Assembly: GCA_037140955.1 (NCBI GenBank)
Contig: JBAXDL010000002.1
Location: 28,176-92,175 of the forward strand
Length of the DNA: 64,000 nt
DNA from: a bacterium
GTDB lineage: Bacteria; Patescibacteriota; Minisyncoccia; Moranbacterales; GWC2-37-73
Direction of reading: 5' to 3'
Below, piece after piece: positions 12,424 to 60,975 of this stretch. Position numbers and translations under genes: made by a program. The notes beneath the pieces are model-generated. The model was not told the origin of the DNA. It searched no databases and saw nothing but the letters and a program-made list of their open reading frames with translations. Positions within the stretch are counted from its first letter, which is position 1. Every line of letters starts with the position of its first letter.

Positions 12424-12455
12424 CAAAAAAAATGGCCAATTAAGGCCATTTTTAA
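12424..12455 (-). terminator. Rho-independent terminator after gap
   Basis: aatggcc-aattaa-ggccatt stem with A-run before and T-run after. Confidence 0.55.
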
Positions 12456-12476: not shown

Positions 12477-13469
12477 TTATTTGCAAATGTAGTGAGCCAT
12501 CTCCACCAAACGATTTGAATATCCCCATTCGTTGTCATACCAGCCAACAATCTTCACCTGATTTCCCATGCTCATGGTCAATGGCAAGTCAACAATAGAA
12601 GAATGTGGATTCATTTTATAGTCCATTGAGACAAGTTCTTTGTGTGTGGCATCAAGAATGTTGAGCATGCTTCCATTGGCAGCTTTTTCAAAAGCAGCAT
12701 TAATTTCTTCAACTGTCTTTGGTTTTGTGACTGTGCAAATGAAATCAACAATTGAAACAACTGGCGTTGGCACGCGCAGAGCAATTCCGTCCAACTTTCC
12801 TTTGAGATGTGGAATCACCTTTCCAACTGTCTTGGCAGCACCAGTGGTGGTTGGAATAATAGAAAGTGCAGCAGCACGTGCTCTTCGCATGTCACGATGA
12901 GGTAAATCCAAAAGATTTTGATCGTTGGTATATGAATGAGTGGTTGTCATGAACCCCTGCTCAACATCACAAAGATCATCCAAAACTTTGATCATCGGAG
13001 CCAAACAATTTGTGGTGCAAGAACCATTGGAAACAATTTTTTCGCCGTTATATTCTTTTTCATTGATGCCAAGCAAGAAAACTGGCACATCATCTTTTGG
13101 TGGAGCAGAAAGCACAACTTTCTTTGCACCAGCTGCAATGTGTTTTCCAGCACCTTCTTGATCCAAGAATATTCCAGTGCAATCAAGCACAACATCAACT
13201 TCCAATTTTCCCCATGGCAATTCCAAAGGATCCTTTTGTGAAAAATATTTTATTGGCTTTCCATCAATAATGATCTCGCTATTTTCCTTGTCTACTTTTA
13301 CATCGCGCCCATACACACCATATGATGAATCATATTTCAAAAGATGTGCACTTGTTTCAATGTCAGTCAAATCATTAATAGCCACAACTTCCATATCATT
13401 CTTTTCGAAAACTATTTTCAATGATGGTCTTCCAATACGACCAAAACCATTAATTGCAACTTTCAACAT
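12477..13469 (-). CDS. gap: Glyceraldehyde-3-phosphate dehydrogenase (type I)
   Basis: MLKVAINGFGRIGR... and the active-site region SNGSCTTNCLAPMIKVL. Confidence 0.92.
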   Translation of the reverse strand: MLKVAINGFGRIGRPSLKIVFEKNDMEVVAINDLTDIETSAHLLKYDSSYGVYGRDVKVDKENSEIIIDGKPIKYFSQKDPLELPWGKLEVDVVLDCTGIFLDQEGAGKHIAAGAKKVVLSAPPKDDVPVFLLGINEKEYNGEKIVSNGSCTTNCLAPMIKVLDDLCDVEQGFMTTTHSYTNDQNLLDLPHRDMRRARAAALSIIPTTTGAAKTVGKVIPHLKGKLDGIALRVPTPVVSIVDFICTVTKPKTVEEINAAFEKAANGSMLNILDATHKELVSMDYKMNPHSSIVDLPLTMSMGNQVKIVGWYDNEWGYSNRLVEMAHYICK

Positions 13470-13630
13470 ATTTTTTTATTTTAATTATAAAAAATAATTT
13501 TTAATTTTTAATTTTCACCCTGCGGGTGCGAGTAATTTTATAAATAAATCATAATGTTTTAATTTTTTAAACATTAGAAATTTAAGAATTATTTAAAAAT
13601 TATAAAATTAAAAATTAAAAATTTTGCAAA

Positions 13631-13906
13631 CTATTGTCCTTCAATTTCAGTCAGATGCCAATGCTCACCTTTCACTTTTTTGATATTAAACTTTGTTCTT
13701 TCAAGAATTGTGCCTTTGGCAATGTTTTTGATTCCAAATTTCAAATTATCAATACTGATGTCTTCTGTGTGTTTTTCATGACCATCGTGCGCCAATGCAA
13801 TTTGCCCAATTTCCAAATTCACATATTCAATCTGTGAAAGTTTCTCACTTTTCACAATTTTCATGATATCATCAACAATTTCCTTGGCCAGCATAAAATC
13901 ATGCAT
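13631..13906 (-). CDS. HypA/HybF-like hydrogenase Ni-insertion protein, non-canonical: lacks the CxxC...CxxC zinc finger
   Basis: N-terminal MHD (HypA has the Ni-binding MHE), then FMLAKEIVDDIMKIVKSEKLSQIEYVNLEIGQIA matching the HypA N-domain. The C-terminal ...GEHWHLTEIEG resembles the HypA end. There is no Cys at all; His-rich instead (HDGHEKH, HWH). Confidence 0.45.
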   Translation of the reverse strand: MHDFMLAKEIVDDIMKIVKSEKLSQIEYVNLEIGQIALAHDGHEKHTEDISIDNLKFGIKNIAKGTILERTKFNIKKVKGEHWHLTEIEGQ

Positions 13907-13946
13907 ACGAGAGTGTAAAATGTAAAGTGTAAAAATAAAAGTACAC

Positions 13947-14288
13947 TCAACTCTTTTTTCTTAATGTAATTATACTTGATCCTAAAATATTTGCTATTTC
14001 TTGCGTTTCCTTTAAAATTTTCTCAGCCTTTTCTTTTTCTGCTTTTTTAGTGTCCCGCAATAATCCTAACCAGAATTTTGTTTCATTTGCAGACTTAAGC
14101 GCATAACTAAAAAAATTTGCAAAATCTTTCCTGGAGGCACCAGCTTGCGCTTCAACAATATTTGCACCAATACTAGTTGCGCTTCTCAATAATTGCTTTG
14201 AAATAACTTCAGTACTGAAATCTCGCTTATTTAATCCATCAACAAACATTATGACATCAATTGCATAGAAATATGCTCTGTGCTTCAA
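13947..14288 (-). CDS. Four-helix-bundle protein (23S rRNA intervening-sequence protein / Avd-like family)
   Basis: LLRSATSIGANIVEAQAGASRKDFANFFSYALKSANETKFWLGLL is the family hallmark. Confidence 0.6.
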   Translation of the reverse strand: MKHRAYFYAIDVIMFVDGLNKRDFSTEVISKQLLRSATSIGANIVEAQAGASRKDFANFFSYALKSANETKFWLGLLRDTKKAEKEKAEKILKETQEIANILGSSIITLRKKS

Positions 14289-14349
14289 TTATGTTTTATT
14301 TTTTTCTTGCATTTTAGTTTTTCGTTTTTAGCTTTGCGTTTTGCACTTT

Positions 14350-15612
14350 CTAGTGGACCGCGCAGCTGATACATGGGTCGTAGGCACGAATGAAAGCGCG
14401 CATTTTTCGTTCCATGGCTTTTTCGTCTTTGTCCAAAATTCCAGGAATAAAGGCGGCTATGTCATCTTCCAGATGTGTCAAAACTTGAGCTGTTGGAGTG
14501 ATGATATTTGCATTTTTGATATACCCTTTTGCATCAATATCAACCCAATAATACAAGGTTCCGCGTGGAGCTTCAATGGCAGCAGCAGCCGACCCCTCAC
14601 GCACAGTATATTCCTTTGTGATTGCATTTTCAAGGTTTTCATGTGTAAGCTCTTTGAGCAAGCGAATTGAATCCTCAATGCAATGCACAACCTCCACCAT
14701 TTGATATATAACATTGTGAAATGGATTATAGTCTGGCAAATTAAATTCCAAACTTTTCAGATATTTTTGAGCAGCAGGACTCAATTGTTCGTGATTATTG
14801 TTAATTCTGGCAATAGCGCCAATCATATAACTTGTTTTTCCATCACGTTCAACTCTCTTGATGACCTCCTTTGGACGTTGAAATTCATGAAAACTTTCTT
14901 CAAATTTTTGAGCACTAACATTCAATCCTTTGTTTGAAATAACATCACCCTCGCAAATTGCATATTCACCTTTTGTGCGAAGACAAACATATTCAGTTGG
15001 ACGAGAAAAATTTGGAACTTTAATTGTTTTGAAAAATGCTGCCAATTCCAAGGCTATTGGCAAAATCTCCTCCCCATTGGCAATAAGCTTTTGCAATTGA
15101 TCAACTGTTGGAACTTTTTTGAAACCACCAACTTCATTTGTGAGAGAATGAACGACTCGGCCACCAAGAGTTTTGACAATAGCCATGCCATATTCACGAA
15201 TTTTCACCGCCTTGATTGTTTCTTCGGGATAGGCTTTGATCAAATCCAAGTCATTTTCAATGTCCAAAAAATCTGCCAATGACAAAAAGAAAAGATGCAG
15301 CGCGTGAGAATGAATAAATTGAGCATGCTCCAAAACTTTTCGCATTTTTATTGTTTCTGGTGTGACCTCAACCTTCATTGCATTTTCAATGGCCTTGATT
15401 GCTGTCAGATTGTGCACAATTGGACAAATACCACAAATTCGCTGGGCGATTGTTGGCATGTCTTTGTAATTTCGGCCAACCAAAATCCCTTCAATCAAGC
15501 GAATTCCCTCTTGCACTTCAAATTTGGCTGATTTCACATCGCCCTTGATAACACTAGCCATAAAGCCAGTATGTCCTTCAATTTTTGCAATGTGATTTAT
15601 TTTTATATTCAT
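14350..15612 (-). CDS. [NiFe]-hydrogenase large subunit, group 3 type; ends exactly at the C-terminal His
   Basis: N-terminal RICGICPIVH (L1 motif). The C-terminal DPCISCAVH is immediately followed by the stop, so there is no cleavable extension. 420 aa. Confidence 0.9.
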   Translation of the reverse strand: MNIKINHIAKIEGHTGFMASVIKGDVKSAKFEVQEGIRLIEGILVGRNYKDMPTIAQRICGICPIVHNLTAIKAIENAMKVEVTPETIKMRKVLEHAQFIHSHALHLFFLSLADFLDIENDLDLIKAYPEETIKAVKIREYGMAIVKTLGGRVVHSLTNEVGGFKKVPTVDQLQKLIANGEEILPIALELAAFFKTIKVPNFSRPTEYVCLRTKGEYAICEGDVISNKGLNVSAQKFEESFHEFQRPKEVIKRVERDGKTSYMIGAIARINNNHEQLSPAAQKYLKSLEFNLPDYNPFHNVIYQMVEVVHCIEDSIRLLKELTHENLENAITKEYTVREGSAAAAIEAPRGTLYYWVDIDAKGYIKNANIITPTAQVLTHLEDDIAAFIPGILDKDEKAMERKMRAFIRAYDPCISCAVH

Positions 15613-15758
15613 AGATTTTTTATGTTTAATATTTTTGTAAATAGTATGTGAAAATATGTTTTTATTTTTGCGCTTAAAACAAGATTCCTTGGTTGTTATT
15701 TCGAAAGTTGCAATTGTTTTTCCGCGCCAAAAATAAAAATATATTTGAACAATCTAAC

Positions 15759-16550
15759 CTATCCCTTGTGCTCCCCTTCCCATTTCTCAACATCATCACG
15801 AAGACCAAAAATCTCAGTAGTGTTTTCAAATTCTTCATCTGTCATCATGTTTTTGAGCGCCATCTTCATTGATTTGACATTAGCAGTTGGACGCAGACCG
15901 CGACAACCTTGGCATCCCATGCGAGAACTAGGGCAAACGGCCTCACATCCACCCAGAATCATTGGACCAAAGCAAGGCTTTTTGTCCAAAAGCAAACAAC
16001 GATTTCCTTGCTCTTTGCACTGCACACAAACTGGACTGTCAGGAATTGTTGGCAAAGCAGTGCCATCCTTCACGTTTGCTAGCAATATCGGAAAATATGC
16101 CAAAAATTCTTCTCCTGTGATTGGACAACCAGGGAAAGTAAAATCAACCTTCACAAAATTATTAACTTCTTTGATTTCTTCATTCTCAATTCCTTGCATG
16201 TATTTGTACACATGCTTGATGGTGTTTTTTCCTTCTTGATAATTTTTAATCTCTGGCACACCACCCATGGCAGCGCAGTTTCCAATCACCACCAACAATT
16301 TGCTGCGTTTTCGAAGCTCCAAGAGAGTTTTGATGTTTGCTTTGGTGGCAGGATTTCCCTCCACAAAGGCAATGTCCAAATCAACACCTGGATCTTCCAA
16401 ATCCTCCAGCAAACGAAAATCAACCATCTCAACTTGCGCCACAGCTTCCAAAAATTTGACACCCAAATCCAAAAGCACAAATTGACACCCTTCGCATGAT
16501 GTCAAAGAAACAATAGCAATTTTTGGTTTTTTCACTTCTTGATTTTCCAT
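15759..16550 (-). CDS. [NiFe]-hydrogenase small subunit, group 3 (delta-type)
   Basis: KIAIVSLTSCEGCQ is the group-3 small-subunit N-terminal motif. Also GNCAAMGG and multiple Cys clusters (CVQCKEQGNRC, CEAVCPSSRMGCQGC) for FeS clusters. Confidence 0.85.
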   Translation of the reverse strand: MENQEVKKPKIAIVSLTSCEGCQFVLLDLGVKFLEAVAQVEMVDFRLLEDLEDPGVDLDIAFVEGNPATKANIKTLLELRKRSKLLVVIGNCAAMGGVPEIKNYQEGKNTIKHVYKYMQGIENEEIKEVNNFVKVDFTFPGCPITGEEFLAYFPILLANVKDGTALPTIPDSPVCVQCKEQGNRCLLLDKKPCFGPMILGGCEAVCPSSRMGCQGCRGLRPTANVKSMKMALKNMMTDEEFENTTEIFGLRDDVEKWEGEHKG

Positions 16551-16655
16551 ATTTATTTTATTTTTATTTGTAATATTTGCACACTAATAAAACCTATTTT
16601 ATTGTATCATATTTTTAAACATAAAAAAATGAGGATTCTTAGAATCCTCATTACA

Positions 16656-17318
16656 CTACATCCTTTTTTTCAAAATTGAAAGATATGGAAAGTCAAAATG
16701 ATTAACATTTCCAGCCAAAAACCTTGCAGCCTCCATAAAATCAGAGTCATTTGCCTGTGAATACAAAAGATTCTTAATCAAAACAACACCTGGCGCATCA
16801 TCAACAACCATGGGATAGTGACAAAGCACAGTTTTTCCCTCAATCATTTCTTTTCTGTCTTTCTCCCAAAAAAGAATACCATTGACTTTGACTGCAACGC
16901 TGCCATTTCGATATTCACCGATCATAATATTGTCTTTTGGTGAAACCTTTTTGATCACAATTGGCATCAGCATGTGATTGAAGATGGTGTAATTGTAAAA
17001 CTTTCCACCTCTGGGGATTTGCTCCTTTACAAGATCACCCAAAACAACATCCGTGTGAAACGATGAGCCAAAATAATTTACAATCACCTCCCTGTCAATA
17101 TCTTTTTTGCCAAGATTTTTTGCAACCAAAACAATAGCTTCTTTGCGTTCATCCCATTGTTGCAGCTTTTTGCAAAATTTTGCAAAATCAATATCAATCT
17201 TCTTTGCTAAATTTTCTTCAATAACCTTGCGATTATTTTCACTACTAGGTTTCCCATCAACATAGCAACTGAAAAACATTTTGTAAAAAAGCTCCATCGC
17301 ATCAGCAGTAATTTTCAT
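16656..17318 (-). CDS. Hypothetical 220-aa soluble protein inside the hydrogenase operon, between hypC and the small subunit
   Basis: No recognisable motifs and only four Cys, so it is not an FeS/diaphorase subunit. Same strand with tight spacing to both neighbours. Confidence 0.4.
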   Translation of the reverse strand: MKITADAMELFYKMFFSCYVDGKPSSENNRKVIEENLAKKIDIDFAKFCKKLQQWDERKEAIVLVAKNLGKKDIDREVIVNYFGSSFHTDVVLGDLVKEQIPRGGKFYNYTIFNHMLMPIVIKKVSPKDNIMIGEYRNGSVAVKVNGILFWEKDRKEMIEGKTVLCHYPMVVDDAPGVVLIKNLLYSQANDSDFMEAARFLAGNVNHFDFPYLSILKKRM

Positions 17319-17321
17319 GGC

Positions 17322-17528
17322 CTATTTCCTTTCATTGATTATGTTAAAGATCTCTTGAGCTTGTCTTTTGTCCATTTTTTCAAGCACAACATTTTGCTGC
17401 GACATGACAAAATCACCGATTGCTAATTCTACAATAGTTTTCATTTCCTGTCTATCGCCCTTGAAATCTTCTACCACCACAAGATCACCCCTGACTTCAA
17501 CGACTTTTTTTGGAATTGTTAGGCACAT
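17322..17528 (-). CDS. hypC: Hydrogenase maturation factor HypC/HupF
   Basis: Starts MCLTIP (the HypC hallmark is MC[LG][AGT]IP), 68 aa. Confidence 0.85.
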   Translation of the reverse strand: MCLTIPKKVVEVRGDLVVVEDFKGDRQEMKTIVELAIGDFVMSQQNVVLEKMDKRQAQEIFNIINERK

Positions 17529-17637
17529 ATGAAAAACTATAAACTAAAAGTGCAAAACTAAAAGCAATCTAGTCTTACCTTTTTATTTTTTTATATTTTA
17601 TACCTTTAACTTTTCGCCTTAAGCTTTACACTTTCAG

Positions 17638-18567
17638 TTATTCTTCTCCAACTTCAACTGATTTTTTGTGATGATTATGTTTGGCCTCATCTTCTTTTGT
17701 GACAACGCATTTTCCATCACTGCAAAAATCAATCATTTTTTTCATTACAGTTTTTTTAACTTCCTCTTGTGCATCGCCAAGAATCTTGCGAATATCAAAA
17801 GAAATTTCATTTTGAGATCTGACAGTTTTGATTATGCTATTTATAAATGAAACACGTGTTGCTGTGTCAACATTGAAGCAATTAACCCCACGCTTAACAA
17901 CCTCTTTGACCCTGCCATTTTCCCAATCAGATGCGCCATGCAAAACAATCGGCACATCAACATTAGCCCTTATTTTCTCAAGTCTTGCATAATCAGGCTC
18001 ACTGCGCTCCTTCACAAATCCATGCGCATTTCCAATAGCAACAGCCAAGGTGTCGATTCCAGTTTTTTCCACAAACTCAGCAGCCTCATCAGGATCAGTC
18101 ATATATTTGTCCCAATCAACATCGCCAGCATCCATTTCTCCAATATATGGAACACTACCAAGCTCTCCTTGAACATCAACACCTTTTTCATGACAATAAT
18201 CGACAACATTTTTTGTGATCAAGATATTGTCATTAAGATGCTTTCTGGATCCATCAATCATCACTGAATTGAAACCAATCTCCACGCATCTCTTGCAAAT
18301 GTCAAAACTCTTGCCATGATCAAGATGAATTCCAATTGGAATTTCTGGTGCATACATTTCCGCCATATTTTTCACAATATTGAAAATCTGCCGACCACCA
18401 GCATAGTCCAAAGTTTTTTCAGTAATTTGAACAATAACAGGACTATGCATTTCTCTGGCAGCCTCAATAATAGCCCTGGTTGTTTCCATGTTGGTGGTGT
18501 TAAATGCTCCAACAGCATATCCACCTTCTTTTGCTTTTGTAAGAATTTCTTTTACACTGGTTATCAT
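17638..18567 (-). CDS. fba: Class II fructose-1,6-bisphosphate aldolase
   Basis: GGYAVGAFNTTNMETTRAIIEAA...GIHLDHG...VMIDGS is the class II aldolase signature. Confidence 0.85.
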   Translation of the reverse strand: MITSVKEILTKAKEGGYAVGAFNTTNMETTRAIIEAAREMHSPVIVQITEKTLDYAGGRQIFNIVKNMAEMYAPEIPIGIHLDHGKSFDICKRCVEIGFNSVMIDGSRKHLNDNILITKNVVDYCHEKGVDVQGELGSVPYIGEMDAGDVDWDKYMTDPDEAAEFVEKTGIDTLAVAIGNAHGFVKERSEPDYARLEKIRANVDVPIVLHGASDWENGRVKEVVKRGVNCFNVDTATRVSFINSIIKTVRSQNEISFDIRKILGDAQEEVKKTVMKKMIDFCSDGKCVVTKEDEAKHNHHKKSVEVGEE

Positions 18568-18634
18568 ATTTTTTAGTCCATAAAGTCAAAAGTCACAAGT
18601 CCTTAACGCTTGATGGACTTTTAGCTTTTAGCTT

Positions 18635-19399
18635 TTAGCTATTTATTATTTCTAAAATCTTCACCAATTCGCTAGGAATCAAACTTTCCCTCCCAACAAG
18701 AACACCATCCATGCCAGGATCAATGCAAACCTGTTTTACGGTGATTGCTTTGACACTTCCACCATACAGCACCTTTATTTTTTCAGCTACAGCAATTCCA
18801 TAGGCTTTTTCAAATATCTTTTTTAGCAAAATTTTAATTTGCAAAATTTCATCACTTTTGGGAATAGCATCACTGCCAACAGCCCAAATTGGTTCATAGG
18901 CAATAACAACAGATGATGCCTTCATTGATGAAACATCAACAAATGCTTCCATGATTTGCTCAGCAATAACCTGCGCTTCATTTCCAGCCTCTCTTTCTTC
19001 CTTTGTTTCGCCAACACAATAAATTGGAGTAATATTATTTTTTAGTGCTGCCTTGATTTTCAAATTTGCATCGGCATTTGTTTCTCCAAAAAATTTTCGG
19101 CGCTCACTGTGACCAATAATCACAAATTCTGACCCAAGATCCTTCAGCATTGGAGCAGAAATCTCACCAGTATATGATCCCCTGTCTTCCCAGAACAAAT
19201 TTTGAGCCCCAATAGCAACGTCCTGTGTTTTCAGATTGTTGATAAAATTTTCGACATGCAAAGATGGCACACAAAGAACCAATTTTGAGTTTACAATTCT
19301 TTTTTCGTATAATTCTTTTTTCAGAGACTCAATATATCGCTCACGTTCAACCGTGGTGAGAAGATTCATTTTCAGGTTGCCAATTATTAATTTCTGCAT
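18635..19399 (-). CDS. tpiA: Triosephosphate isomerase
   Basis: LIIGNLKMN...VIIGHSERR...YCVGE are TIM motifs. Confidence 0.9.
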   Translation of the reverse strand: MQKLIIGNLKMNLLTTVERERYIESLKKELYEKRIVNSKLVLCVPSLHVENFINNLKTQDVAIGAQNLFWEDRGSYTGEISAPMLKDLGSEFVIIGHSERRKFFGETNADANLKIKAALKNNITPIYCVGETKEEREAGNEAQVIAEQIMEAFVDVSSMKASSVVIAYEPIWAVGSDAIPKSDEILQIKILLKKIFEKAYGIAVAEKIKVLYGGSVKAITVKQVCIDPGMDGVLVGRESLIPSELVKILEIINS

Positions 19400-51605: not shown

Positions 51606-51820
51606 CCAATATCAACCATTTTTATTTTAGTAGATTTCCCACCAACAATCTTGATCAAACTTTTGGCAACTTTGAAGTGTTTTGACAAAATATCTATCAA
51701 TGCGTCATTAGCTTGACCATCAACAGGCGGAGCAGTTAATTTTATTCTGTATTCACCTTCTGAAGTTTTCACAACTTCATTTTTTGATGATCGAGGTGAA
51801 ACTTTAATATAAATTCTCAT
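51602..51820 (-). CDS. DUF167 (YggU/UPF0235) family protein
   Basis: VSPRSSKNEV...LKIKLTAPPVDGQANDALIDILSKHFKVAKSLIKIVGGKSTKIK. Confidence 0.7.
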   Translation of the reverse strand: MRIYIKVSPRSSKNEVVKTSEGEYRIKLTAPPVDGQANDALIDILSKHFKVAKSLIKIVGGKSTKIKMVDIG

Positions 51821-52740
51821 TAGACTTGATTTTGTGCACTAGCATTTGCAGCATTCTTCCTATCGATATTAGTTTTAATGCGAACAAACATGTTTATTAG
51901 CATCAGCAGTATCAAGAAAATATTAGCAACCACGAAGATATTTCTCACAATAATATTTTGCATATCAGTCCCAAGAAGGTATGCGTGCGAAATTACAGCA
52001 CCATACAAAAAGATGTTCAAAAAATGCAAAGCTCTCCACAATTTTGCAGAAATATATTTTCGAACATAAGATGATGCAGTCAGAATAACCATCAAATAAA
52101 ATCCAATAATTCCAAGCGCCACCAAGGTTGATTTGTATTGCGTAGCAAATGGAACAAAAACATCAATCAAACTGAAATGAATAAATTTATCAAACATCAA
52201 AAACACACCATGAATAAGTGCAAACAAAGTCGCTTGAAAAGCAATCCAGCAATGGCCTTGCATGGCATAAAGTGGAGCAAAAAATTTACGAAGAAATCCT
52301 ACGCGAATTGTTAGGCCAAGAAAAATAGAGAGGTATAGCAAGGTAAATCCAACCAAGCCACTAGCTCTTGAAGCATACCAAGCCCAGGGGGTTTCATTTG
52401 AAGATGAGGCTTGATTTTCTCCTACTGGAGGAAGACCAGGAATTGAAGCTGAATCAAGCGGATCAGTTTCTGCCAAAACTTCACTACCATCATAATATCC
52501 ATCGCCATCAGTATCATGATTCTTAGGATCAGTCCCATATATTTGCACCTCAGCTTGATCAGTCAAACCATCCAAGTCTGAATCTAATGCTGGGCCTCCT
52601 TCATAGCTAACTTTTGATTGTGTGCCAATAGGTGCATCCTGCGCCTTGGTGTAAGCAAAAAACATCAAGCCAGAAACAGCAATAAAGCATGATGCTAGCA
52701 CGATTTTACCCTTATTGCTGATCTTATTTGTCGTGTTCAT
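51820..52740 (-). CDS. Ferric-reductase-like transmembrane heme-binding domain protein (MsrQ/YedZ-like) with N-terminal secreted Ca-binding repeats
   Basis: Signal/TM anchor. DSDLDGLTDQ and DTDGDGYYDGSEV thrombospondin-type-3-like Asp motifs. Membrane domain with paired His, IHGVFLM and ALHFLNIFLYGAVISHAY (H-x13-H), as in YedZ. Confidence 0.5.
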   Translation of the reverse strand: MNTTNKISNKGKIVLASCFIAVSGLMFFAYTKAQDAPIGTQSKVSYEGGPALDSDLDGLTDQAEVQIYGTDPKNHDTDGDGYYDGSEVLAETDPLDSASIPGLPPVGENQASSSNETPWAWYASRASGLVGFTLLYLSIFLGLTIRVGFLRKFFAPLYAMQGHCWIAFQATLFALIHGVFLMFDKFIHFSLIDVFVPFATQYKSTLVALGIIGFYLMVILTASSYVRKYISAKLWRALHFLNIFLYGAVISHAYLLGTDMQNIIVRNIFVVANIFLILLMLINMFVRIKTNIDRKNAANASAQNQV

Positions 52741-52756
52741 TTTTTTAAAATTAAGA

Positions 52757-53749
52757 TTAATATAAATGTTCCTTAGCTTTAGGTGAGATCCAGGCGGCTC
52801 CTCGATAATTCAAAATCACTACTGCCAGGTCATGCTCCCTTGCGTATAGCATACCACCTTTTGCACCCATTAGAAAGATTGTTTTTGCCCAAACATCAGC
52901 CGAGGTTGTATCATCCGCAATAACAGAAACTGATTTTAAGTCAAAAGAAAAATTTTCAGGATTTTTTGGATCAACAATATGATGCACTCTTTTTCCATCA
53001 ATTTCCCAGCGTCTTCTGCCAATTCCAGAAGTTGCTATCCCCTTCTTATCAAGAGCAAAAATCATTTTTTTTTCATCAATACCTTCAACTGCAATTGTCC
53101 AGCGCCGCTGCTCCTCATCTAATCCTTGCATAAACATGTCACCACCAGAATCAACCAAAAAATTATTCCAACCTTTTGAAATCAAAAATTCAGCAACTCT
53201 ATCAGTGATATATCCTTTTGCTATTCCAGAAAAATCCATCTTAACACCAAAAAAAACTTTTCCATCTTCAATTCTCAAATCATCTACCAAGGGACCCTGC
53301 AATAGTGTTGATTTTTCATCAATATCTGACCTGAACAATCTGCTTCCATCACTAAAATCATCAAAATAACCAACCTTTTCCAAAACATCGAGTATTCTTG
53401 GATCAAAAATCCCATCAGTATCACTATTGTATTTCAGTGACATTTTAACAATTTCGAGCAAATGGCTAGATGCAAGATTAAAAACACCTAATTTCAAATT
53501 TAATTTTGACAGCTCGCTTTCTAAATCAAAACGACTAAAGATCTTAGTAAAATCATCATACACTTTTTCTACCAAAGAAAAATCTTCTCTCATCAACTTT
53601 TCTTCCTCAGCGGTGGTAACCACAACTTGAATATCAATATCAGTTCCCAACTTTCTAAATTGAAAACGTGCTATTTTGGGAAATTTTTCAGAATTTTCAG
53701 CGTTAGCTTGCATATTCAAAGGTGTCAACAATTCCATTTCCATTTTCAT
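52757..53749 (-). CDS. apbE: FAD:protein FMN transferase (ApbE family)
   Basis: FSGIAKGYITDRVAEFL (the GIAKGY motif), ...FDPRIL..., ...SGIGRRRWE... Confidence 0.75.
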   Translation of the reverse strand: MKMEMELLTPLNMQANAENSEKFPKIARFQFRKLGTDIDIQVVVTTAEEEKLMREDFSLVEKVYDDFTKIFSRFDLESELSKLNLKLGVFNLASSHLLEIVKMSLKYNSDTDGIFDPRILDVLEKVGYFDDFSDGSRLFRSDIDEKSTLLQGPLVDDLRIEDGKVFFGVKMDFSGIAKGYITDRVAEFLISKGWNNFLVDSGGDMFMQGLDEEQRRWTIAVEGIDEKKMIFALDKKGIATSGIGRRRWEIDGKRVHHIVDPKNPENFSFDLKSVSVIADDTTSADVWAKTIFLMGAKGGMLYAREHDLAVVILNYRGAAWISPKAKEHLY

Positions 53750-54901: not shown

Positions 54902-56401
54902 TTATGATTTTTTAGTGGTACCCTTAGATGAACTCTTATATCCAGCCTGTTTTCTTGTTATATCAGCCGTTATTTCATATCTCATCAGTTTACTTCTGCG
55001 ACCAGTTTTCAAGTCAACAGCATACCATTTATACTTTCCGTAGTTCTTTTTTGCGATATAATAAACACTAAATGCTCCTTTTTTATCAGTCTTAACTGAG
55101 ATTGGTGGATAATAGCTCAAATTAGAACGAGAAAAATACAAATTAACCATTGAATTTTTGGAAAATCGCTTGCCTGTTTGGGTTATTTCACCACCTCTTT
55201 TAACTTTACTATAACTTTGATTTATCTGACGCTTTGGCTCTTCAACCTCATCTTCATCATCTTTTTTTTCAACAGATGCTGAAACCGGCGTTGAAATTGG
55301 AATTGCAGCTGCAGGAGCCTGAATTGAAAAGGCAGCAGAAAGTGCAGATTCATTGGCAAAATCATCATAAGCTGAAACACGATATTGATATGCGGTTGAA
55401 GGATTTATTGTTAAATCAGAATAACTAAGACTTGTCGTGGTTGCAATCTCAATATCGTTTCTATAGATCTTATATCCAGCAACTGCTACAATGTCTGATG
55501 ATGCTGCCCATGAAAGATCGGCTTGATTTGCGGAAACAACATTAACACTCAAACTTCCGGGCACTGTTGGTGCAATCAAGTCTCCGCCAGTATTTAGAAT
55601 TGAAAAAGATATAATATAATCATCAAGATTCACATTCAATGAATCATCTTGGCAACGCACATAATATGAATATGTTGACCCATTAGAAAGCCCAGTAACT
55701 GTCGTTGAATGAATAGTTCTTGCGCCAGTGTTTGCAAATTGTGTCATTGAAGCATAAGGAGTATCTACAGATGTTGAATAGGCACAAGTGGCATTTTCAT
55801 TAGTCATGAGTGAGATATTAGAACTAGTTGTGCCTGCTGAACGCGCCGAAGTTGGAGCTTTGTTCAAGCGAATTGGAGGATTTTCAACTGTTACGGAAAT
55901 TGCAGCAGACGCCTTTGCGCCATAATCGACAGTACTCGCATCACATGACAATGAATGAACACCATCAGCAACACCTGTAGTGTCCCATGTTATGCCATAT
56001 GGAAAAACAGTGTCCTGCTCGCCAAGATTAAAGCCATCTAATTTAAACTGAACCCCAGAAATTGGGACATCAATCGGAAGCGGGCTAGTTGCATCAGCAG
56101 TAACAGAAACAGACGCACCAGAAACTGTTGAGCCATCCACCGGAGCAGTAATACTACGCGATACAGTCATAGCACTAACGCTGTGCACGAAAATGTCATT
56201 TCTTTGATATTGATCTTCTTTAATTGCTAATAGTCCCTTAAGTTTAGAATCACGAAAAGAATCACCTTGCCTGACAAGTGCGAAGAATTTTTTGGAAAAT
56301 TTTACAATAGAAATAAATGAGTCAATATAAAACTGCACACAATAAACCAGAAGGATTGAAAAAGTGATGCTTATTATTTTTCTTTTTTTTATTTTTATCA
56401 T
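54902..56401 (-). CDS. Cell-surface protein with bacterial Ig-like and fibronectin type III domains (paralog 1)
   Basis: N-terminal anchor identical to paralog 2. Ig-like domain ...SGVQFKLDGFNLGEQDTVFPYGITWDTTGVADGVHSL.... FN3 ...APTVPGSLSVNVVSANQADLSWAAS...GYKIYRN...YQYRVSAYD... Confidence 0.55.
   Translation of the reverse strand: MIKIKKRKIISITFSILLVYCVQFYIDSFISIVKFSKKFFALVRQGDSFRDSKLKGLLAIKEDQYQRNDIFVHSVSAMTVSRSITAPVDGSTVSGASVSVTADATSPLPIDVPISGVQFKLDGFNLGEQDTVFPYGITWDTTGVADGVHSLSCDASTVDYGAKASAAISVTVENPPIRLNKAPTSARSAGTTSSNISLMTNENATCAYSTSVDTPYASMTQFANTGARTIHSTTVTGLSNGSTYSYYVRCQDDSLNVNLDDYIISFSILNTGGDLIAPTVPGSLSVNVVSANQADLSWAASSDIVAVAGYKIYRNDIEIATTTSLSYSDLTINPSTAYQYRVSAYDDFANESALSAAFSIQAPAAAIPISTPVSASVEKKDDEDEVEEPKRQINQSYSKVKRGGEITQTGKRFSKNSMVNLYFSRSNLSYYPPISVKTDKKGAFSVYYIAKKNYGKYKWYAVDLKTGRRSKLMRYEITADITRKQAGYKSSSKGTTKKS
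56261..56398. repeat. 138-bp direct repeat (copy 1) covering the 5' end of paralog 1
   Basis: Identical to 57191-57328 apart from 1-2 mismatches. Encodes ...KIKKRKIISITFSILLVYCVQFYIDSFISIVKFSKKFFALVRQGDSF. Confidence 0.85.
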
Positions 56402-56431
56402 GTGAAATAAAAACTCAAATATTTTAAATAT

Positions 56432-57334
56432 TTATAAAACCATTAGGCTGCTTGGTGCACTTGGTGCTGTCACATCAGTCAAAACAGAAAAATTTATAGC
56501 GGTATAATCACTAGCATTTTGATTTCCAACCAAATCCTGGCAACGCACATAATATGGATAAGAATTTCCTCCAATAAGTCCAGTGATCGTAGCAGAATGA
56601 GCTGTGCCACCAATTGCTGCAAATGCGTTTGTCATTGAGGCATATGGAACGCCAGCAGAAGTTGAATATTTGCAAGTTGCACTTTCATTGGTTGTAAGTG
56701 TTATATTTGTTTGTGTTGTTCCTATGGCAAGGGCCGTGGATGGACCTCCAAGCAAACGAACCGGGGCTGTATTATCAACCGTTACTGAAGTTACAGGAGA
56801 TACCTGTCCAGTGCCATATCTTGTGCTGCTATTGTATGTAATAATTGTCAATGAGTGAACCCCGTCTGTAGTGGTGGTTGTATCCCAAGGAAAAATAGCC
56901 GTGGCATCATTTCCCACAAGTGTCAACATAGAATTTGCCACGGTGGCTTTTGCGCCAAGATTAGCTCCATCTAATCGGAATTGAATACCATTAACAATAG
57001 CTGGTTCAGCTGGCTGACTTATAGCTGTAGCTGTCAAATTGAATGTCCCATGAATTACAATACCAGCAGTTGGTGCTATTATGGAATCAGAAATTGTTGC
57101 AGCCGAAACAGCATGCACAAAAATATTCTCTTTTTGGTATTGATCATTTTTAAATTCTAATAATCCTTTTTTCTTAGCAACATCAAAAGAATCACCTTGC
57201 CTGACAAGTGCAAAGAATTTTTTGGAAAATTTTACAATAGAAATAAATGAGTCAATATAAAACTGCACACAATAAACCAGAAGGATTGAAAAAGTGATGC
57301 TTATTATTTTTCTTTTTTTTATTTTTAAGTGCAT
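56432..57334 (-). CDS. Cell-surface Ig-like-domain protein (paralog 2, shorter)
   Basis: Same N-terminal 45 aa. Ig-like domain ...NGIQFRLDGANLGAKATVANSML...FPWDTTTTTDGVHSL... Confidence 0.5.
   Translation of the reverse strand: MHLKIKKRKIISITFSILLVYCVQFYIDSFISIVKFSKKFFALVRQGDSFDVAKKKGLLEFKNDQYQKENIFVHAVSAATISDSIIAPTAGIVIHGTFNLTATAISQPAEPAIVNGIQFRLDGANLGAKATVANSMLTLVGNDATAIFPWDTTTTTDGVHSLTIITYNSSTRYGTGQVSPVTSVTVDNTAPVRLLGGPSTALAIGTTQTNITLTTNESATCKYSTSAGVPYASMTNAFAAIGGTAHSATITGLIGGNSYPYYVRCQDLVGNQNASDYTAINFSVLTDVTAPSAPSSLMVL
57191..57328. repeat. 138-bp direct repeat (copy 2) covering the 5' end of paralog 2
   Basis: See copy 1. Confidence 0.85.
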
Positions 57335-57407: not shown

Positions 57408-58109
57408 TTAGTTATTTTCCCTAATTCCACATATTTTAAAGTTTTTTTCTATTTTTTCCTTTATCTTGGCTAAATCTATTTTTTTGTTTAGTGACACTGT
57501 GCGCAAATTTTGATCAAGAATTACTCCGTCTCTATATTCTTGCAAATAATATGCATCAGCACCATTGATCCATTTGGCAATTTTTTTAAAATCTTCTTCA
57601 TTGTGAATCCCAGGAACAACAGTGGTGCGAAACTCGTAGGCCAAGTCACTTTCCATGATCAATTTCACACTTAACTTTATTTTTTCAATATCAACATTAA
57701 GTCCAACAGTCTTACTGTAATTTTCTGGAGAATTTTTAATATCCATGGCAATAAAATCCACCAATTTTTCATCAATAACCTTTTTCAAAACTTCTGGCCG
57801 GCTGCCATTAGAATCAAGCTTAACTTTAAAACCAAGATCTTTGATTTTTTTGATAAATGGAATAATATCACTTTGAATAGTTGGCTCTCCCCCAGTAATA
57901 CAAACTCCTTCCAATTTTCCAATACGTTTTTTCAAATGCTCAAAAAATTCTTTTTCCAATTCATTTGGATACGGAAATTGAGACTGAAGGACAAGTTCTG
58001 GATTATGACAAAAGCCACAACGAAAACTGCAACCAACAGTGAAAACCGTGGTTGCAATTGTTCCTGGAAAGTCTATTAGGGTTAGTTTTTGATAACCACC
58101 AATGCGCAT
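57408..58109 (-). CDS. nrdG: Anaerobic ribonucleoside-triphosphate reductase activating protein (radical SAM)
   Basis: CSFRCGFCHN (CxxxCxxC), ...GVCITGGEP... Confidence 0.85.
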   Translation of the reverse strand: MRIGGYQKLTLIDFPGTIATTVFTVGCSFRCGFCHNPELVLQSQFPYPNELEKEFFEHLKKRIGKLEGVCITGGEPTIQSDIIPFIKKIKDLGFKVKLDSNGSRPEVLKKVIDEKLVDFIAMDIKNSPENYSKTVGLNVDIEKIKLSVKLIMESDLAYEFRTTVVPGIHNEEDFKKIAKWINGADAYYLQEYRDGVILDQNLRTVSLNKKIDLAKIKEKIEKNFKICGIRENN

Positions 58110-58279: not shown

Positions 58280-58546
58280 TTAGCAAGAAACACAGGCGCC
58301 TTGCTCAACCATATATTCTGCGCGGTCTCCAAACTCTGCCTGCTTGCCCTTGTTCCATTGAGAAATTGGGCGAATATACCCAACCACACGAGAATAAACT
58401 TCTGTTGCTTGAAAATTTCGAAGCACTGAATCTTTTTGATGACAAGACTTGCATTTAGCAAAGGTTTCTTTGCCGACAGAATATGGCATATATTCTTCAT
58501 TGTGCTCTAGGCTTTTTTGACAATCATGACATGTGTGTTTTTTCAT
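58280..58546 (-). CDS. Standalone NrdD-C-terminal-like mini-protein: Zn-ribbon + glycyl-radical motif (candidate spare-part for NrdD)
   Basis: CHDC...CKSC, then TEVYSRVVGYIRPISQWNKGKQAEFGDRAEY. 29 of 31 residues match the NrdD C-terminus TEVYSRVVGYIRPVEQWNKGKQAEFGDRKEY. The DNA is also similar (58330-58420 versus 58835-58925). Confidence 0.7.
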   Translation of the reverse strand: MKKHTCHDCQKSLEHNEEYMPYSVGKETFAKCKSCHQKDSVLRNFQATEVYSRVVGYIRPISQWNKGKQAEFGDRAEYMVEQGACVSC

Positions 58547-58779: not shown

Positions 58780-60975
58780 TTATTTTTTCTCCGCACAAGC
58801 AACTTCGCATTTTCCATTTTCATATTCCTTGCGATCTCCAAATTCAGCCTGCTTTCCTTTGTTCCATTGTTCAACGGGGCGAATATACCCAACCACGCGA
58901 GAATAAACTTCGGTTTTTTGTTCAATAACACACTTTGGACAAACTGGTTGTTCGCCGTTGATATATCCATGCACCGGACAAATACTGAAAGTTGGAGAAA
59001 GCGTGAAATATGGCAAAGAATAATTTTCCGCAATCTTTCTGACCAGATTTTTCACCATTTCAATGTCCCAAATTCTTTCCCCCAAGAATCCATGAAGCAC
59101 CGTTCCTCCTGTATATTTTGTTTGCATTTTTTCCTGCAAATCTAAAGCCTCAAAAATATCTTCTGTGAAGTGAACTGGCAATTGTGAAGAATTGGTATAA
59201 TATGGCTCTGCACCTTTTGTTCGAACCGCCACATTGTTTGCAAAAATAATTTCTGGATATTTTTCACGATCCTTTCTGGCCAAGCGATATGATGTTCCTT
59301 CAGCTGGAGTTGCTTCAAGATTGTACATGCTGCCAGTTTCCTCTTGAAATTTGAGCATTTTCTCTCGCATATGCACCAAAATTTCCTCTCCCAAATCCTG
59401 TCCTTCTTTGGTGGTAATATCCTTTCCAATTAAATTTACCAAAGCCTCATTTAATCCAACCAAGCCAATGGTTGAAAAATGATTTGACCAATAAGACCCC
59501 TGACGCATTTTGATCGCATCTAAATAAAATTTGGTGTATGGATATAATCCTTTTTCTGTTAGACTTTCTACTAATTTTCTTTTTGTATCAAGACTTTCCT
59601 TGGCCACATCCATCAATGAATCAAGTTGCACAAAAAATTCTTTTTTGTTTTTTGCGGCATAACCAATACGTGGCATGTTTATTGTTACCACCCCAATTGA
59701 GCCAGTTAGTGGATTTGCGCCAAAGAGTCCTCCACCTCGTTTGCGCAATTCTCGATTGTCCAAACGAAGACGACAGCACATAGAACGAGCATCATCAGGA
59801 TCCATGTCTGAGTTAACAAAGTTTGCAAAATATGGAATGCCATACTTTGCTGTCATTTCCCAAACAGCATCAAAGCGCTTGTCACTCCAATCAAAATCTT
59901 TGGCAATGTTGTATGTCGGAATTGGGAAAGTGAAGATTCGCCCGCTAGCATCACCTTCAGTCATCACCTCAGCAAAGGCGCGATTGATCATGTTCATTTC
60001 ATCTTGAAATTCACCATAAGTTTCTTTTTGTGGAACCCCACCAATGATGACAGCTTCTTTTGCAAGCATTCCTGGTGCGGTCATGTCCATAGTGATGTTT
60101 GAAAATGGTGTTTGAAATCCCACGCGCGTTGAAACATTCATATTGAAAACAAAAGATTGAATTTCTTGTTTAACTTGCTCATAGGTCAATTTGTCATAGC
60201 GCACAAATGGAGCAAGAAGTGTGTCAAAATTTGAAAAAGCTTGCGCTCCAGCAACCTCACCCTGCAAAGTATAAATGAAATTTACCATTTGCCCAAGAAT
60301 TGAACCAAGATGTTTTGCTGGCTTGCAGGCAACCTTTCCAGGCACACCAGTAAATCCCCTGCGAAGCAAATCTTGCAAATCCCAACCACAACAATAGGCA
60401 GCAACCAGCTGCAAATCATGAATGTGAATATCACCACTCTCATTGGCAGATCGAATTTCCTTAGAATAAACACGATTCATCCAATATTTAGAACTAACGA
60501 TTGAAGCGATGTAATTGTTAAGGCCTTGCAAAGAGTATGCCATGTTTGCGTTCTCTTTTACTTGCCAATCTAATTCTTGAATATATTTATCCACTAAACT
60601 TACAGCCTCATCCAGAGAGTGTTCTGTTTCGCGAATTTTTCGATGCTGTTCTCGATACAAAATATATGCCTTGGCAGTTTCCTCATAATCCAAAACCATC
60701 AGCACACGCTCAACCAAATCTTGCAATTGTTCAATTGCTGGAATTTCACCCTTTTTAAAATTTTTGTTCAGCAATTGCACAACTTTGTCAGCAACTTTTT
60801 TGGCATCATCCTTTGTTCCTTCTTTTGTTATTAAAAATGCTCGCTCAACCGCAACTGCAATCTTTTTCTGGTCAAAAGGCACAACCACTCCACTTCTCTT
60901 TACAATCTTTTTCACCAAATTCACAACTTTTTTCTTTTCAATCTTTTTTTCTTCCACCTTCTTTTGATTTTTCAT
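58780..60975 (-). CDS. nrdD: Anaerobic ribonucleoside-triphosphate reductase (class III) with N-terminal ATP-cone
   Basis: ATP-cone VVKRSGVVVPFDQKKIAVAVERAF. C-terminal glycyl-radical motif SRVVGYIRP preceded by a Cys cluster CPVHG...CPKC. 731 aa. Confidence 0.9.
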   Translation of the reverse strand: MKNQKKVEEKKIEKKKVVNLVKKIVKRSGVVVPFDQKKIAVAVERAFLITKEGTKDDAKKVADKVVQLLNKNFKKGEIPAIEQLQDLVERVLMVLDYEETAKAYILYREQHRKIRETEHSLDEAVSLVDKYIQELDWQVKENANMAYSLQGLNNYIASIVSSKYWMNRVYSKEIRSANESGDIHIHDLQLVAAYCCGWDLQDLLRRGFTGVPGKVACKPAKHLGSILGQMVNFIYTLQGEVAGAQAFSNFDTLLAPFVRYDKLTYEQVKQEIQSFVFNMNVSTRVGFQTPFSNITMDMTAPGMLAKEAVIIGGVPQKETYGEFQDEMNMINRAFAEVMTEGDASGRIFTFPIPTYNIAKDFDWSDKRFDAVWEMTAKYGIPYFANFVNSDMDPDDARSMCCRLRLDNRELRKRGGGLFGANPLTGSIGVVTINMPRIGYAAKNKKEFFVQLDSLMDVAKESLDTKRKLVESLTEKGLYPYTKFYLDAIKMRQGSYWSNHFSTIGLVGLNEALVNLIGKDITTKEGQDLGEEILVHMREKMLKFQEETGSMYNLEATPAEGTSYRLARKDREKYPEIIFANNVAVRTKGAEPYYTNSSQLPVHFTEDIFEALDLQEKMQTKYTGGTVLHGFLGERIWDIEMVKNLVRKIAENYSLPYFTLSPTFSICPVHGYINGEQPVCPKCVIEQKTEVYSRVVGYIRPVEQWNKGKQAEFGDRKEYENGKCEVACAEKK

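Follow-up and report, generated by a model that had tools for sequence, protein, structure and literature searches.

Genes for a putative alpha-delta-only group-3b-type [NiFe]-hydrogenase and a reduced maturation set between fba and gap in a Moraniibacteriota bacterium

Introduction

Can a group-3 [NiFe]-hydrogenase work with its two catalytic subunits alone? The question is raised by a gene cluster in a 64-kb stretch of contig JBAXDL010000002.1 (hereafter the window), which comes from an uncultivated ultra-small bacterium of the Moraniibacteriota (Candidate Phyla Radiation, CPR/Patescibacteria). On the minus strand, at 12477-19399, the genes tpiA, fba, hypC, a 220-amino-acid (aa) open reading frame (ORF), the hydrogenase small (delta) and large (alpha) subunits, a four-helix-bundle gene, a HypA-like gene and gap follow one another. 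An initial annotation of the window had named these genes with their strand and order, and all of them were present with the family signatures it gave, as Pfam and NCBIfam confirmed.

Our best explanation, held with moderate confidence, is that the locus encodes a functional cytoplasmic alpha-delta-only group-3b-type [NiFe]-hydrogenase, characteristic of Moraniibacteriota, with a reduced maturation set between fba and gap. We favour a functional two-subunit enzyme because the metal ligands do not vary, both subunits change at the slow rate of GAPDH and no beta/gamma diaphorase recurs within 10 kb in relatives.

Results and Discussion

The catalytic core

The two subunits are encoded as follows.

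15759..16550, minus strand: hydrogenase small (delta) subunit, 263 aa; Oxidored_q6; best NCBIfam match ShyD/HydD
14350..15612, minus strand: hydrogenase large (alpha) subunit, 420 aa; NiFeSe_Hases; best NCBIfam match sulfhydrogenase HydA/ShyA

The large subunit carries RICGICP and a C-terminal DPCISCAVH, with the stop codon directly after it. Its Ni/Fe ligands are C60, C63, C414 and C417, and its last residue is His420. To score conservation, we aligned the large (81 sequences) and small (72 sequences) subunits of 80 GTDB species representatives. All four cysteines and H420 were invariant (81/81), and every protein ended at the motif His. Since the large subunit ends there, a C-terminal endopeptidase is not needed; the initial annotation had said so for this sequence, and the statement holds in 81/81. 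Its worry that essential Ni-ligand motifs might be lacking found no support in the same alignment. In the small subunit the 12 Cys, which correspond to three [4Fe-4S] clusters, were invariant in 72/72 homologues, and the length of 263 aa compares with a family median of 268 aa.

The best PDB match of the large subunit was the alpha chain of Pyrococcus furiosus sulfhydrogenase I (SHI), with 200 bits over the full length, and T. kodakarensis HyhL was likewise among the best. Scores were lower for HydABCSL (143 bits), group 3c (~140), group 3a (119), group 3d (115) and group 1 (<=88). The small subunit matched best the delta chain of P. furiosus SHI (118 bits over residues 8-253). NCBIfam scores were 227.7 bits for HydA (equivalog cutoff 880) and 142 bits for ShyD, both far under the equivalog cutoffs. 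As judged from its nearest solved and curated homologues, the enzyme is a group-3b-type core, and we call it divergent because the best NCBIfam matches fall so far under those cutoffs. These matches support the group-3 catalytic pair of the initial annotation, as 3b-type, and the window holds no gene for beta, gamma or another diaphorase.

Among genomes of the window's own sublineage, dN was 0.09-0.16 for both subunits with dS saturated, which is equal to gap; both keep to the slow pace of GAPDH. Strong purifying selection acts on the core, as on a working hydrogenase.

Search for electron partners

No other hydrogenase subunit was found among window ORFs of at least 70 aa. Homologues of hypD, hypE, hypF, [FeFe]-HydA-like proteins and desulfoferrodoxin were not detected in the 64 kb by tblastn, and a six-frame motif scan of the window gave no ferredoxin or rubredoxin motif. 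On ~15 kb more of the 147-kb contig, ~7 kb past each window end, there were no partner genes. Pfam calls on this extra ~15 kb included no NuoE, NuoF or HydA-like protein; NuoE and NuoF were not searched against the window.

We then compared 80 species-level loci of relatives (+/-10 kb), whose large subunits are 64-89% identical. Their ORFs were called and clustered and the clusters annotated by Pfam, after which Pfam was run on 150 leftover ORFs and all ORFs were scanned for CxxCxxCxxxC. No recurrent beta (HydB-like) or gamma (FAD/NAD plus 2Fe-2S) family was found in the 80 loci; the run on the 150 leftover ORFs covered the 25 commonest of 175 families, so that a single occurrence of beta or gamma is possible. 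The ferredoxin-motif scan returned HydA-like proteins only, and the sole Fe-S/flavin proteins seen in these loci were, in 13 of them, a NuoE-NuoF-[FeFe]-HydA-like trio encoded upstream of hypC. Because no beta/gamma family recurs in the 80 loci, its lack beside the catalytic pair is a property of the clade and not an assembly gap.

The genes for beta and gamma could still lie elsewhere in the genome, as a split operon of an ordinary heterotetrameric 3b (sulf)hydrogenase. The visible part of the genome is limited, HyhBGSL clusters have been reported in some Moranbacteria (PMC10811913), and a full-length small subunit, alignable to P. furiosus delta across residues 8-253, would suit a tetramer. 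We nevertheless consider a split operon unlikely: canonical 3b enzymes keep their four genes together and no beta/gamma-type family recurs within 10 kb in the 80 relatives, and a genome-wide hidden Markov model (HMM) search by Jaffe et al. did not detect beta/gamma in part of the CPR hyd1 clade (PMC7304191).

The trio of NuoE, NuoF and [FeFe]-HydA-like genes stands directly upstream of hypC in its 13 relatives (e.g. L071:1376-4216, L051:1539-4670; L numbers denote the related sequences). All of its HydA-like proteins have variant H-cluster motifs (HCPS for TSCCP), and those of 5 loci are C-terminally truncated (344-354 aa) and without the ExMxCxxGC motif. In 21/80 relatives the large-subunit gene is followed directly by one for desulfoferrodoxin (superoxide reductase) on the same strand (e.g. 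L039:4226-4600).

Each of these neighbours suggests another partner. The alpha-delta pair might dock on a NuoE/NuoF/HydA-like (HydABC-/HoxEFU-like) module encoded elsewhere, and would then be NAD(H)-linked and possibly bifurcating, an enzyme of the NiFe-HydABCSL kind. Besides the position of the trio in 13/80 relatives, the variant motifs and truncations of its HydA-like proteins agree with such docking, gap is still adjacent in the rearranged module-bearing loci L119 and L120, and the large subunit of the solved HydABCSL (7t2r) belongs to the second-best PDB group. However, the window holds no [FeFe]-HydA-like homologue by tblastn and the Pfam calls on the extra ~15 kb none of the three proteins, the small subunit of 7t2r is short and single-cluster (179 aa) whereas that described here has three clusters, and the HydA-like proteins may be a separate [FeFe]-hydrogenase. 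We hold this docking to be rather improbable. Very unlikely, in our view, is an H2-uptake enzyme that feeds oxygen or reactive oxygen species detoxification through desulfoferrodoxin (superoxide reductase) instead of producing H2 in fermentation. Its argument is the desulfoferrodoxin gene of the 21 relatives, but adjacency by itself does not demonstrate electron transfer, and neither a desulfoferrodoxin homologue (tblastn) nor a rubredoxin motif was found in the window.

Proposed working of the alpha-delta enzyme

For the alpha-delta-only enzyme that we prefer, the distal [4Fe-4S] cluster of the small subunit would exchange electrons directly with a low-potential carrier or enzyme that is encoded separately. 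Candidate partners are ferredoxin or pyruvate:ferredoxin oxidoreductase, by analogy with an engineered P. furiosus SHI alpha-delta dimer. This dimer (Hopkins et al. 2011) was highly active with methyl viologen, did not use NADPH and took electrons directly from pyruvate:ferredoxin oxidoreductase (PMC3200332). With such a separate low-potential partner at the distal cluster, the enzyme would most likely be an H2-evolving redox valve in fermentation and not an NAD(P)H-linked sulfhydrogenase.

Several points weigh against this proposal. The sequence covered is ~79 kb of one contig, and a partner, or beta/gamma, could be encoded elsewhere. A ferredoxin or pyruvate:ferredoxin oxidoreductase gene was not found here, and the proposed partner comes from analogy alone. 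The 13 relatives with NuoE/NuoF/HydA-like genes and the 21 with desulfoferrodoxin offer other possible partners within the family. Valentin-Alvarado et al. (2024) described Moranbacteria with four-subunit 3b enzymes (PMC10811913). In addition, the searches turned up no hypD, hypE or hypF that belongs to this sublineage.

Organisation of the cluster

The other features of the cluster are listed below.

18635..19399, minus strand: tpiA (triose-phosphate isomerase), upstream flank, position also kept in relatives; Pfam TIM 1.9e-74
17638..18567, minus strand: fba (class II fructose-bisphosphate aldolase); Pfam F_bP_aldolase 2.6e-89
17322..17528, minus strand: hypC* (68 aa); Pfam HupF_HypC 7e-12
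16656..17318, minus strand: unk220 (the 220-aa ORF), without Pfam or NCBIfam match
16628..16652, minus strand: terminator-like hairpin, 11-bp stem then T run, directly after the unk220 stop; consensus scan, weak evidence
13947..14288, minus strand: four-helix-bundle (23S rRNA IVP / Avd-like) gene; Pfam 23S_rRNA_IVP 6e-22; TIGR02436
13631..13906, minus strand: HypA-like gene, 91 aa, Cys-free; Pfam HypA 30.5 bits (cutoff 28.9)
12477..13469, minus strand: gap (type I GAPDH), downstream neighbour; TIGR01534 408 bits, above its cutoff
12428..12453, minus strand: terminator-like hairpin after gap; consensus scan, weak evidence

The stop codon of hypC* is 3 nt from the start of unk220. By the consensus scan, terminator-like hairpins occur in the cluster only after the unk220 gene and after gap, a placement compatible with co-expression of the cluster. 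This evidence is weak because the number of such hairpins in the region is not above shuffle expectation. The identical protein also occurs on a 147-kb contig from an ENA metagenome and on one from Logan. The gene order, whose conservation the initial annotation had proposed to check, recurs in independent assemblies and in relatives.

The 220-aa protein and the modified HypC

The unk220 protein has an N-terminal helical domain (~residues 1-113) followed by a HypC-like OB domain (~residues 114-190). Five relatives were found by a word-indexed search and ~100 clusters, all of 200-245 aa, by a HMMER scan of 1.84 billion representatives; the family is a small orphan family. In an alignment of 84 sequences, H115 and H167 are invariant and C18, F83, H88, Y136 and Q188 nearly invariant; C18, H88, H115 and H167 may point to a metal site. 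A PDB sequence search with the unk220 profile gave no match.

Evidence for the HypC-like domain comes from profile comparisons. Four of the 84 family members match Pfam HupF_HypC (PF01455; best E 3.4e-5). Using hhalign against a HypC alignment, we obtained a probability of 80% (E 1.5e-5), with residues 114-186 placed on HypC 1-62, His115 on HypC Cys2 and VLxH on HypC VMVH. When the family HMM was run against all locus ORFs, the first match outside the family was a genuine HypC (E 0.006). The OB-fold beta-barrel and C-terminal helix of the HypC/HupF family are present in unk220, and the N-terminal Met-Cys is not. In HybG, which belongs to the HypC family, the N-terminal Cys carries Fe(CN)2CO and is required for binding of the apo-large subunit (PMC8692609). 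Unlike HypC, HupF and HybG, unk220 has its HypC-like domain internally, after the ~113-aa helical domain, and the essential Cys is replaced by the invariant His115.

The initial annotation had proposed a co-evolution analysis of the 220-aa protein with the small subunit. We rejected the protein as a redox subunit: it has no Cys-cluster or flavin motif, and its C-terminal half is the HypC-like OB domain. With no cofactor-binding Cys motif, it is not the missing electron-transfer subunit. We also rejected the view that it is what is left of HypD, HypE, HypF or one of the hydrogenase subunits: hhalign gave probabilities of <=1.3% against these, and likewise against other control families.

The neighbouring hypC* product keeps Cys2 (MCLTIPKK), and in an alignment with 31 HypC sequences of relatives its VHAGFA His motif is replaced by GDFVMSQQNVVLEK. 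The two proteins are complementary in these residues, since hypC* has Cys2 and lacks the VHAGFA His, while unk220 has that His and carries His for Cys2. The unk220 protein is thus a paralogue with a HypC domain whose gene accompanies that of a modified HypC, and its predicted role is most plausibly that of a large-subunit chaperone or assembly factor. It evolves fast, with 24-60% identity where the large subunit retains 85-89%, and pN is still below pS.

Exchange of hypC*-unk220 and hypDEF

Of the 80 GTDB loci, 14 carry the unk220 gene, and so do the window and the metagenome sequences closest to it. In every case the small-subunit gene comes directly after unk220, and hypC, where detectable, precedes it. 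The unk220 gene was never found together with hypD, hypE or hypF, and it occupies their exact site in other relatives; at this conserved site hypDEF are absent from 12/12 unk220-type loci with upstream coverage. According to pairwise DNA comparisons (L022/L023, L009/L010 and L008/L012), the cassettes are replaced cleanly between collinear flanks. L023 and L022, for example, are 92.7% identical across the small and large subunit genes and differ in their cassettes. In a neighbour-joining tree built from the large subunit, loci of the two configurations are interleaved, and the identities of unk220 and hypC do not follow that of the large subunit. These patterns suggest cassette exchange by recombination.

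A homologue search and a JGI metagenome scan for the HypD of unk220-type genomes returned close HypD relatives only beside hydrogenase genes, plus one orphan. This orphan hypD (L116:234-2074; product 64% identical to L012 HypD) lies beside ftsH and an ORF for a weak HycI-like protease, and is of uncertain origin, not assignable to the unk220 sublineage. In 42 loci of relatives HypF consists only of the C-terminal Kae1-like half (~400 aa; Pfam HypF_C and HypF_C_2), as in L009:6819-8039 (-). This half-size hypF sits on the opposite strand, between hypE and the small-subunit gene. L052 and L061 read tpiA-fba-small-large-gap, with no hypC, unk220 or HypA-like ORF called between and with the metal ligands intact. 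Hyp genes can therefore reside elsewhere.

A bolder reading is that in the unk220 sublineage the canonical HypD, HypE and HypF have been replaced, not moved, that HypC* and unk220 form a new kind of scaffold/chaperone pair, which would mature the minimal alpha-delta enzyme by another route, and that the cassettes are alternative recombining alleles. We find this quite doubtful. Loss of hypD, hypE and hypF could also mean that the hydrogenase is an inactive relic in this sublineage, in line with the bare hypDEF site of the 12/12 loci and with the failure to find these genes on ~79 kb of the present contig. We hold such a relic to be extremely improbable: all metal ligands are invariant, dN between unk220-type genomes has the gap-like values given above (dS being saturated), and hypC*, unk220 and the HypA-like gene are conserved too. 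For the working alpha-delta enzyme, we propose that unk220 and HypC* would be chaperones of the apo-large subunit, and that HypD, HypE and HypF, if present, would be encoded elsewhere.

The HypA-like gene and inserted genes

The 91-aa HypA-like protein begins with M-H-D, and its Pfam HypA match covers profile positions 1-71 of 112. The N-terminal M-H-E/D nickel motif and the Ni-binding-domain fold of the HypA family are present. The Zn site of two CxxC motifs is absent, the protein being without any Cys, and its NCBIfam HypA equivalog scores are far under the cutoffs. H2 and H46 are invariant (50/50 each) and H40 is kept in 49/50 sequences. By tblastn, 80/83 related loci have a homologue. From these features the protein is predicted to be a minimal Zn-free HypA-like nickel chaperone, which would supply nickel to the hydrogenase. 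Two ORF clusters described as "downstream of large subunit, opposite strand" (c15 and c24) were discarded as probable ORF-picking artefacts at the HypA-like position; in the window, the match of one c15 member runs antisense to the HypA-like gene.

The Avd-like gene had been counted with the system in the initial annotation, and this part did not stand. L003 and L004, the closest relatives, lack it at this site, and elsewhere its position varies. Four-helix-bundle, PD-(D/E)XK and M10-peptidase-like genes are sporadic and occur at different intergenic sites in relatives, and the Avd-like four-helix-bundle and PD-(D/E)XK genes were rejected as system components and regarded as sporadic insertions. 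A ~317-aa Peptidase_M10 (matrixin)-like gene lies between the small and large genes in 17/80 relatives (e.g. L044:9029-9982), which is odd because the large subunit requires no C-terminal cleavage. In ~10 further loci the same spot holds a PD-(D/E)XK_3 or four-helix-bundle gene. The small-large spacer (window 15613-15758) appears to be a hot spot for insertions.

Linkage to glycolysis genes

The order in most relatives is galT, (a VTT or small-MDR gene), tpiA, fba, in some loci NuoE, NuoF and HydA-like, then hypC, hypD, hypE, the hypF C-terminal half (on the opposite strand, where present), small, large, in some loci desulfoferrodoxin, then HypA-like, gap, amidohydrolase and mur. This order is ancestral-looking. 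The gap gene adjoins the cluster in 65/83 loci, and L119 and L120, which are rearranged, also have it there.

The hydrogenase and its maturation genes lie inside a conserved tpiA-fba ... gap string, and a long-standing linkage is therefore supported. Such linkage does not prove metabolic coupling. The initial annotation had inferred tight coupling of the hydrogenase to glycolysis through reoxidation of NAD(P)H or ferredoxin. Its linkage to gap and to tpiA-fba is conserved in relatives, but the coupling was overstated, since the core has no NAD(P)-binding module and cannot by itself reoxidise the NADH from the neighbouring GAPDH.

Some GTDB records among the relatives (e.g. L013, L015, L016, L027 and L030) are titled 'uncultured Bdellovibrionales'. 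Their gene content and synteny are those of Moraniibacteriota, and the deposited names are probably wrong.

Other observations in the window

The window has an even composition (~36% G+C), and the rest of it is housekeeping: a ribosomal protein operon, SecY, EF-Tu/G, SMC and NrdDG. At 58280-58546 (-), an 88-aa gene with an NRDD Pfam match lies between nrdD (58780-60975) and an nrdG-like radical-SAM activase gene (57408-58109), and may be a split or spare glycyl-radical domain. At 51820-53749 (-), an ApbE flavin-transferase gene adjoins a gene for a membrane protein with a weak ferric-reductase-domain match; together they may form a membrane redox module. Two tandem ORFs of 499 and 300 aa at 54902-57334 (-), with a Big_7 match, have nearly identical N-terminal ~48 residues. 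They resemble the products of a recent tandem duplication, and the protein is putatively located in the membrane or at the surface.

Comparison with known systems

Hydrogenases of this general kind had been seen before, contrary to the novelty suggested by the initial annotation. Jaffe et al. (2020) described two CPR-specific 3b-related clades, hyd1 and hyd2, and called their function uncertain; the small subunit of hyd1 is ~250 aa, and beta/gamma are usually co-located and in some members 'not detected at all', whereas in hyd2 beta/gamma were not detected and the small subunits are truncated (mean 164 aa) (PMC7304191). The core claim, a CPR 3b-like hydrogenase without partner subunits, is thus in print already, as an unresolved observation. 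Like hyd1 and hyd2, the present enzyme is a CPR 3b-like hydrogenase with hypC nearby. Its small subunit is of full length (263 aa with all 12 Cys) and not truncated as in hyd2, so that it resembles a hyd1 enzyme without the co-located beta/gamma. The HydDB authors also placed a Moranbacteria large subunit in group 3b (PMC5037454).

The present analysis adds the following. The absence of beta/gamma extends across ~80 species in which the cofactor ligands are fully conserved. The neighbour of the catalytic pair is a HypC-domain protein with Cys changed to His, which at one locus alternates with hypDEF. The accessory set is reduced to an unusual degree, with a Zn-free HypA and, in relatives, a half-size HypF. 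If the alpha-delta pair works alone, it would be a natural counterpart of the engineered SHI 'minimal hydrogenase' and a compact template for biocatalysts that produce H2. It is relevant, too, to redox balance in fermenting CPR bacteria (~1 Mb genomes) and to H2 exchange with hosts or neighbours. The alternation of hypDEF and hypC*-unk220 gives a testable handle on the minimal needs of [NiFe]-cofactor assembly.

H2-sensing group 2b and CooH/Ech hydrogenases likewise have a large subunit without C-terminal extension. They belong to groups 2b and 4 and have other partners, and neither a sensor kinase nor a membrane module is present here. With the group 3b enzymes (P. furiosus sulfhydrogenase I/II and T. 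kodakarensis Hyh) the present enzyme shares the Ni/Fe ligands, the three-cluster delta subunit and the cytoplasmic location, but only about one third of its alpha residues are identical to those of P. furiosus alpha. In the archaeal alpha chains 4 residues follow the motif His, whereas the large subunit here has none. Unlike group 3b, it is not accompanied by beta (HydB) or gamma (HydG), and so lacks a module for the reduction of NAD(P) or sulfur. The P. furiosus SHI heterodimer was engineered from a tetramer, while the dimer predicted here is natural and clade-wide. The two have the same two-subunit composition, and the engineered heterodimer is the best functional analogue.

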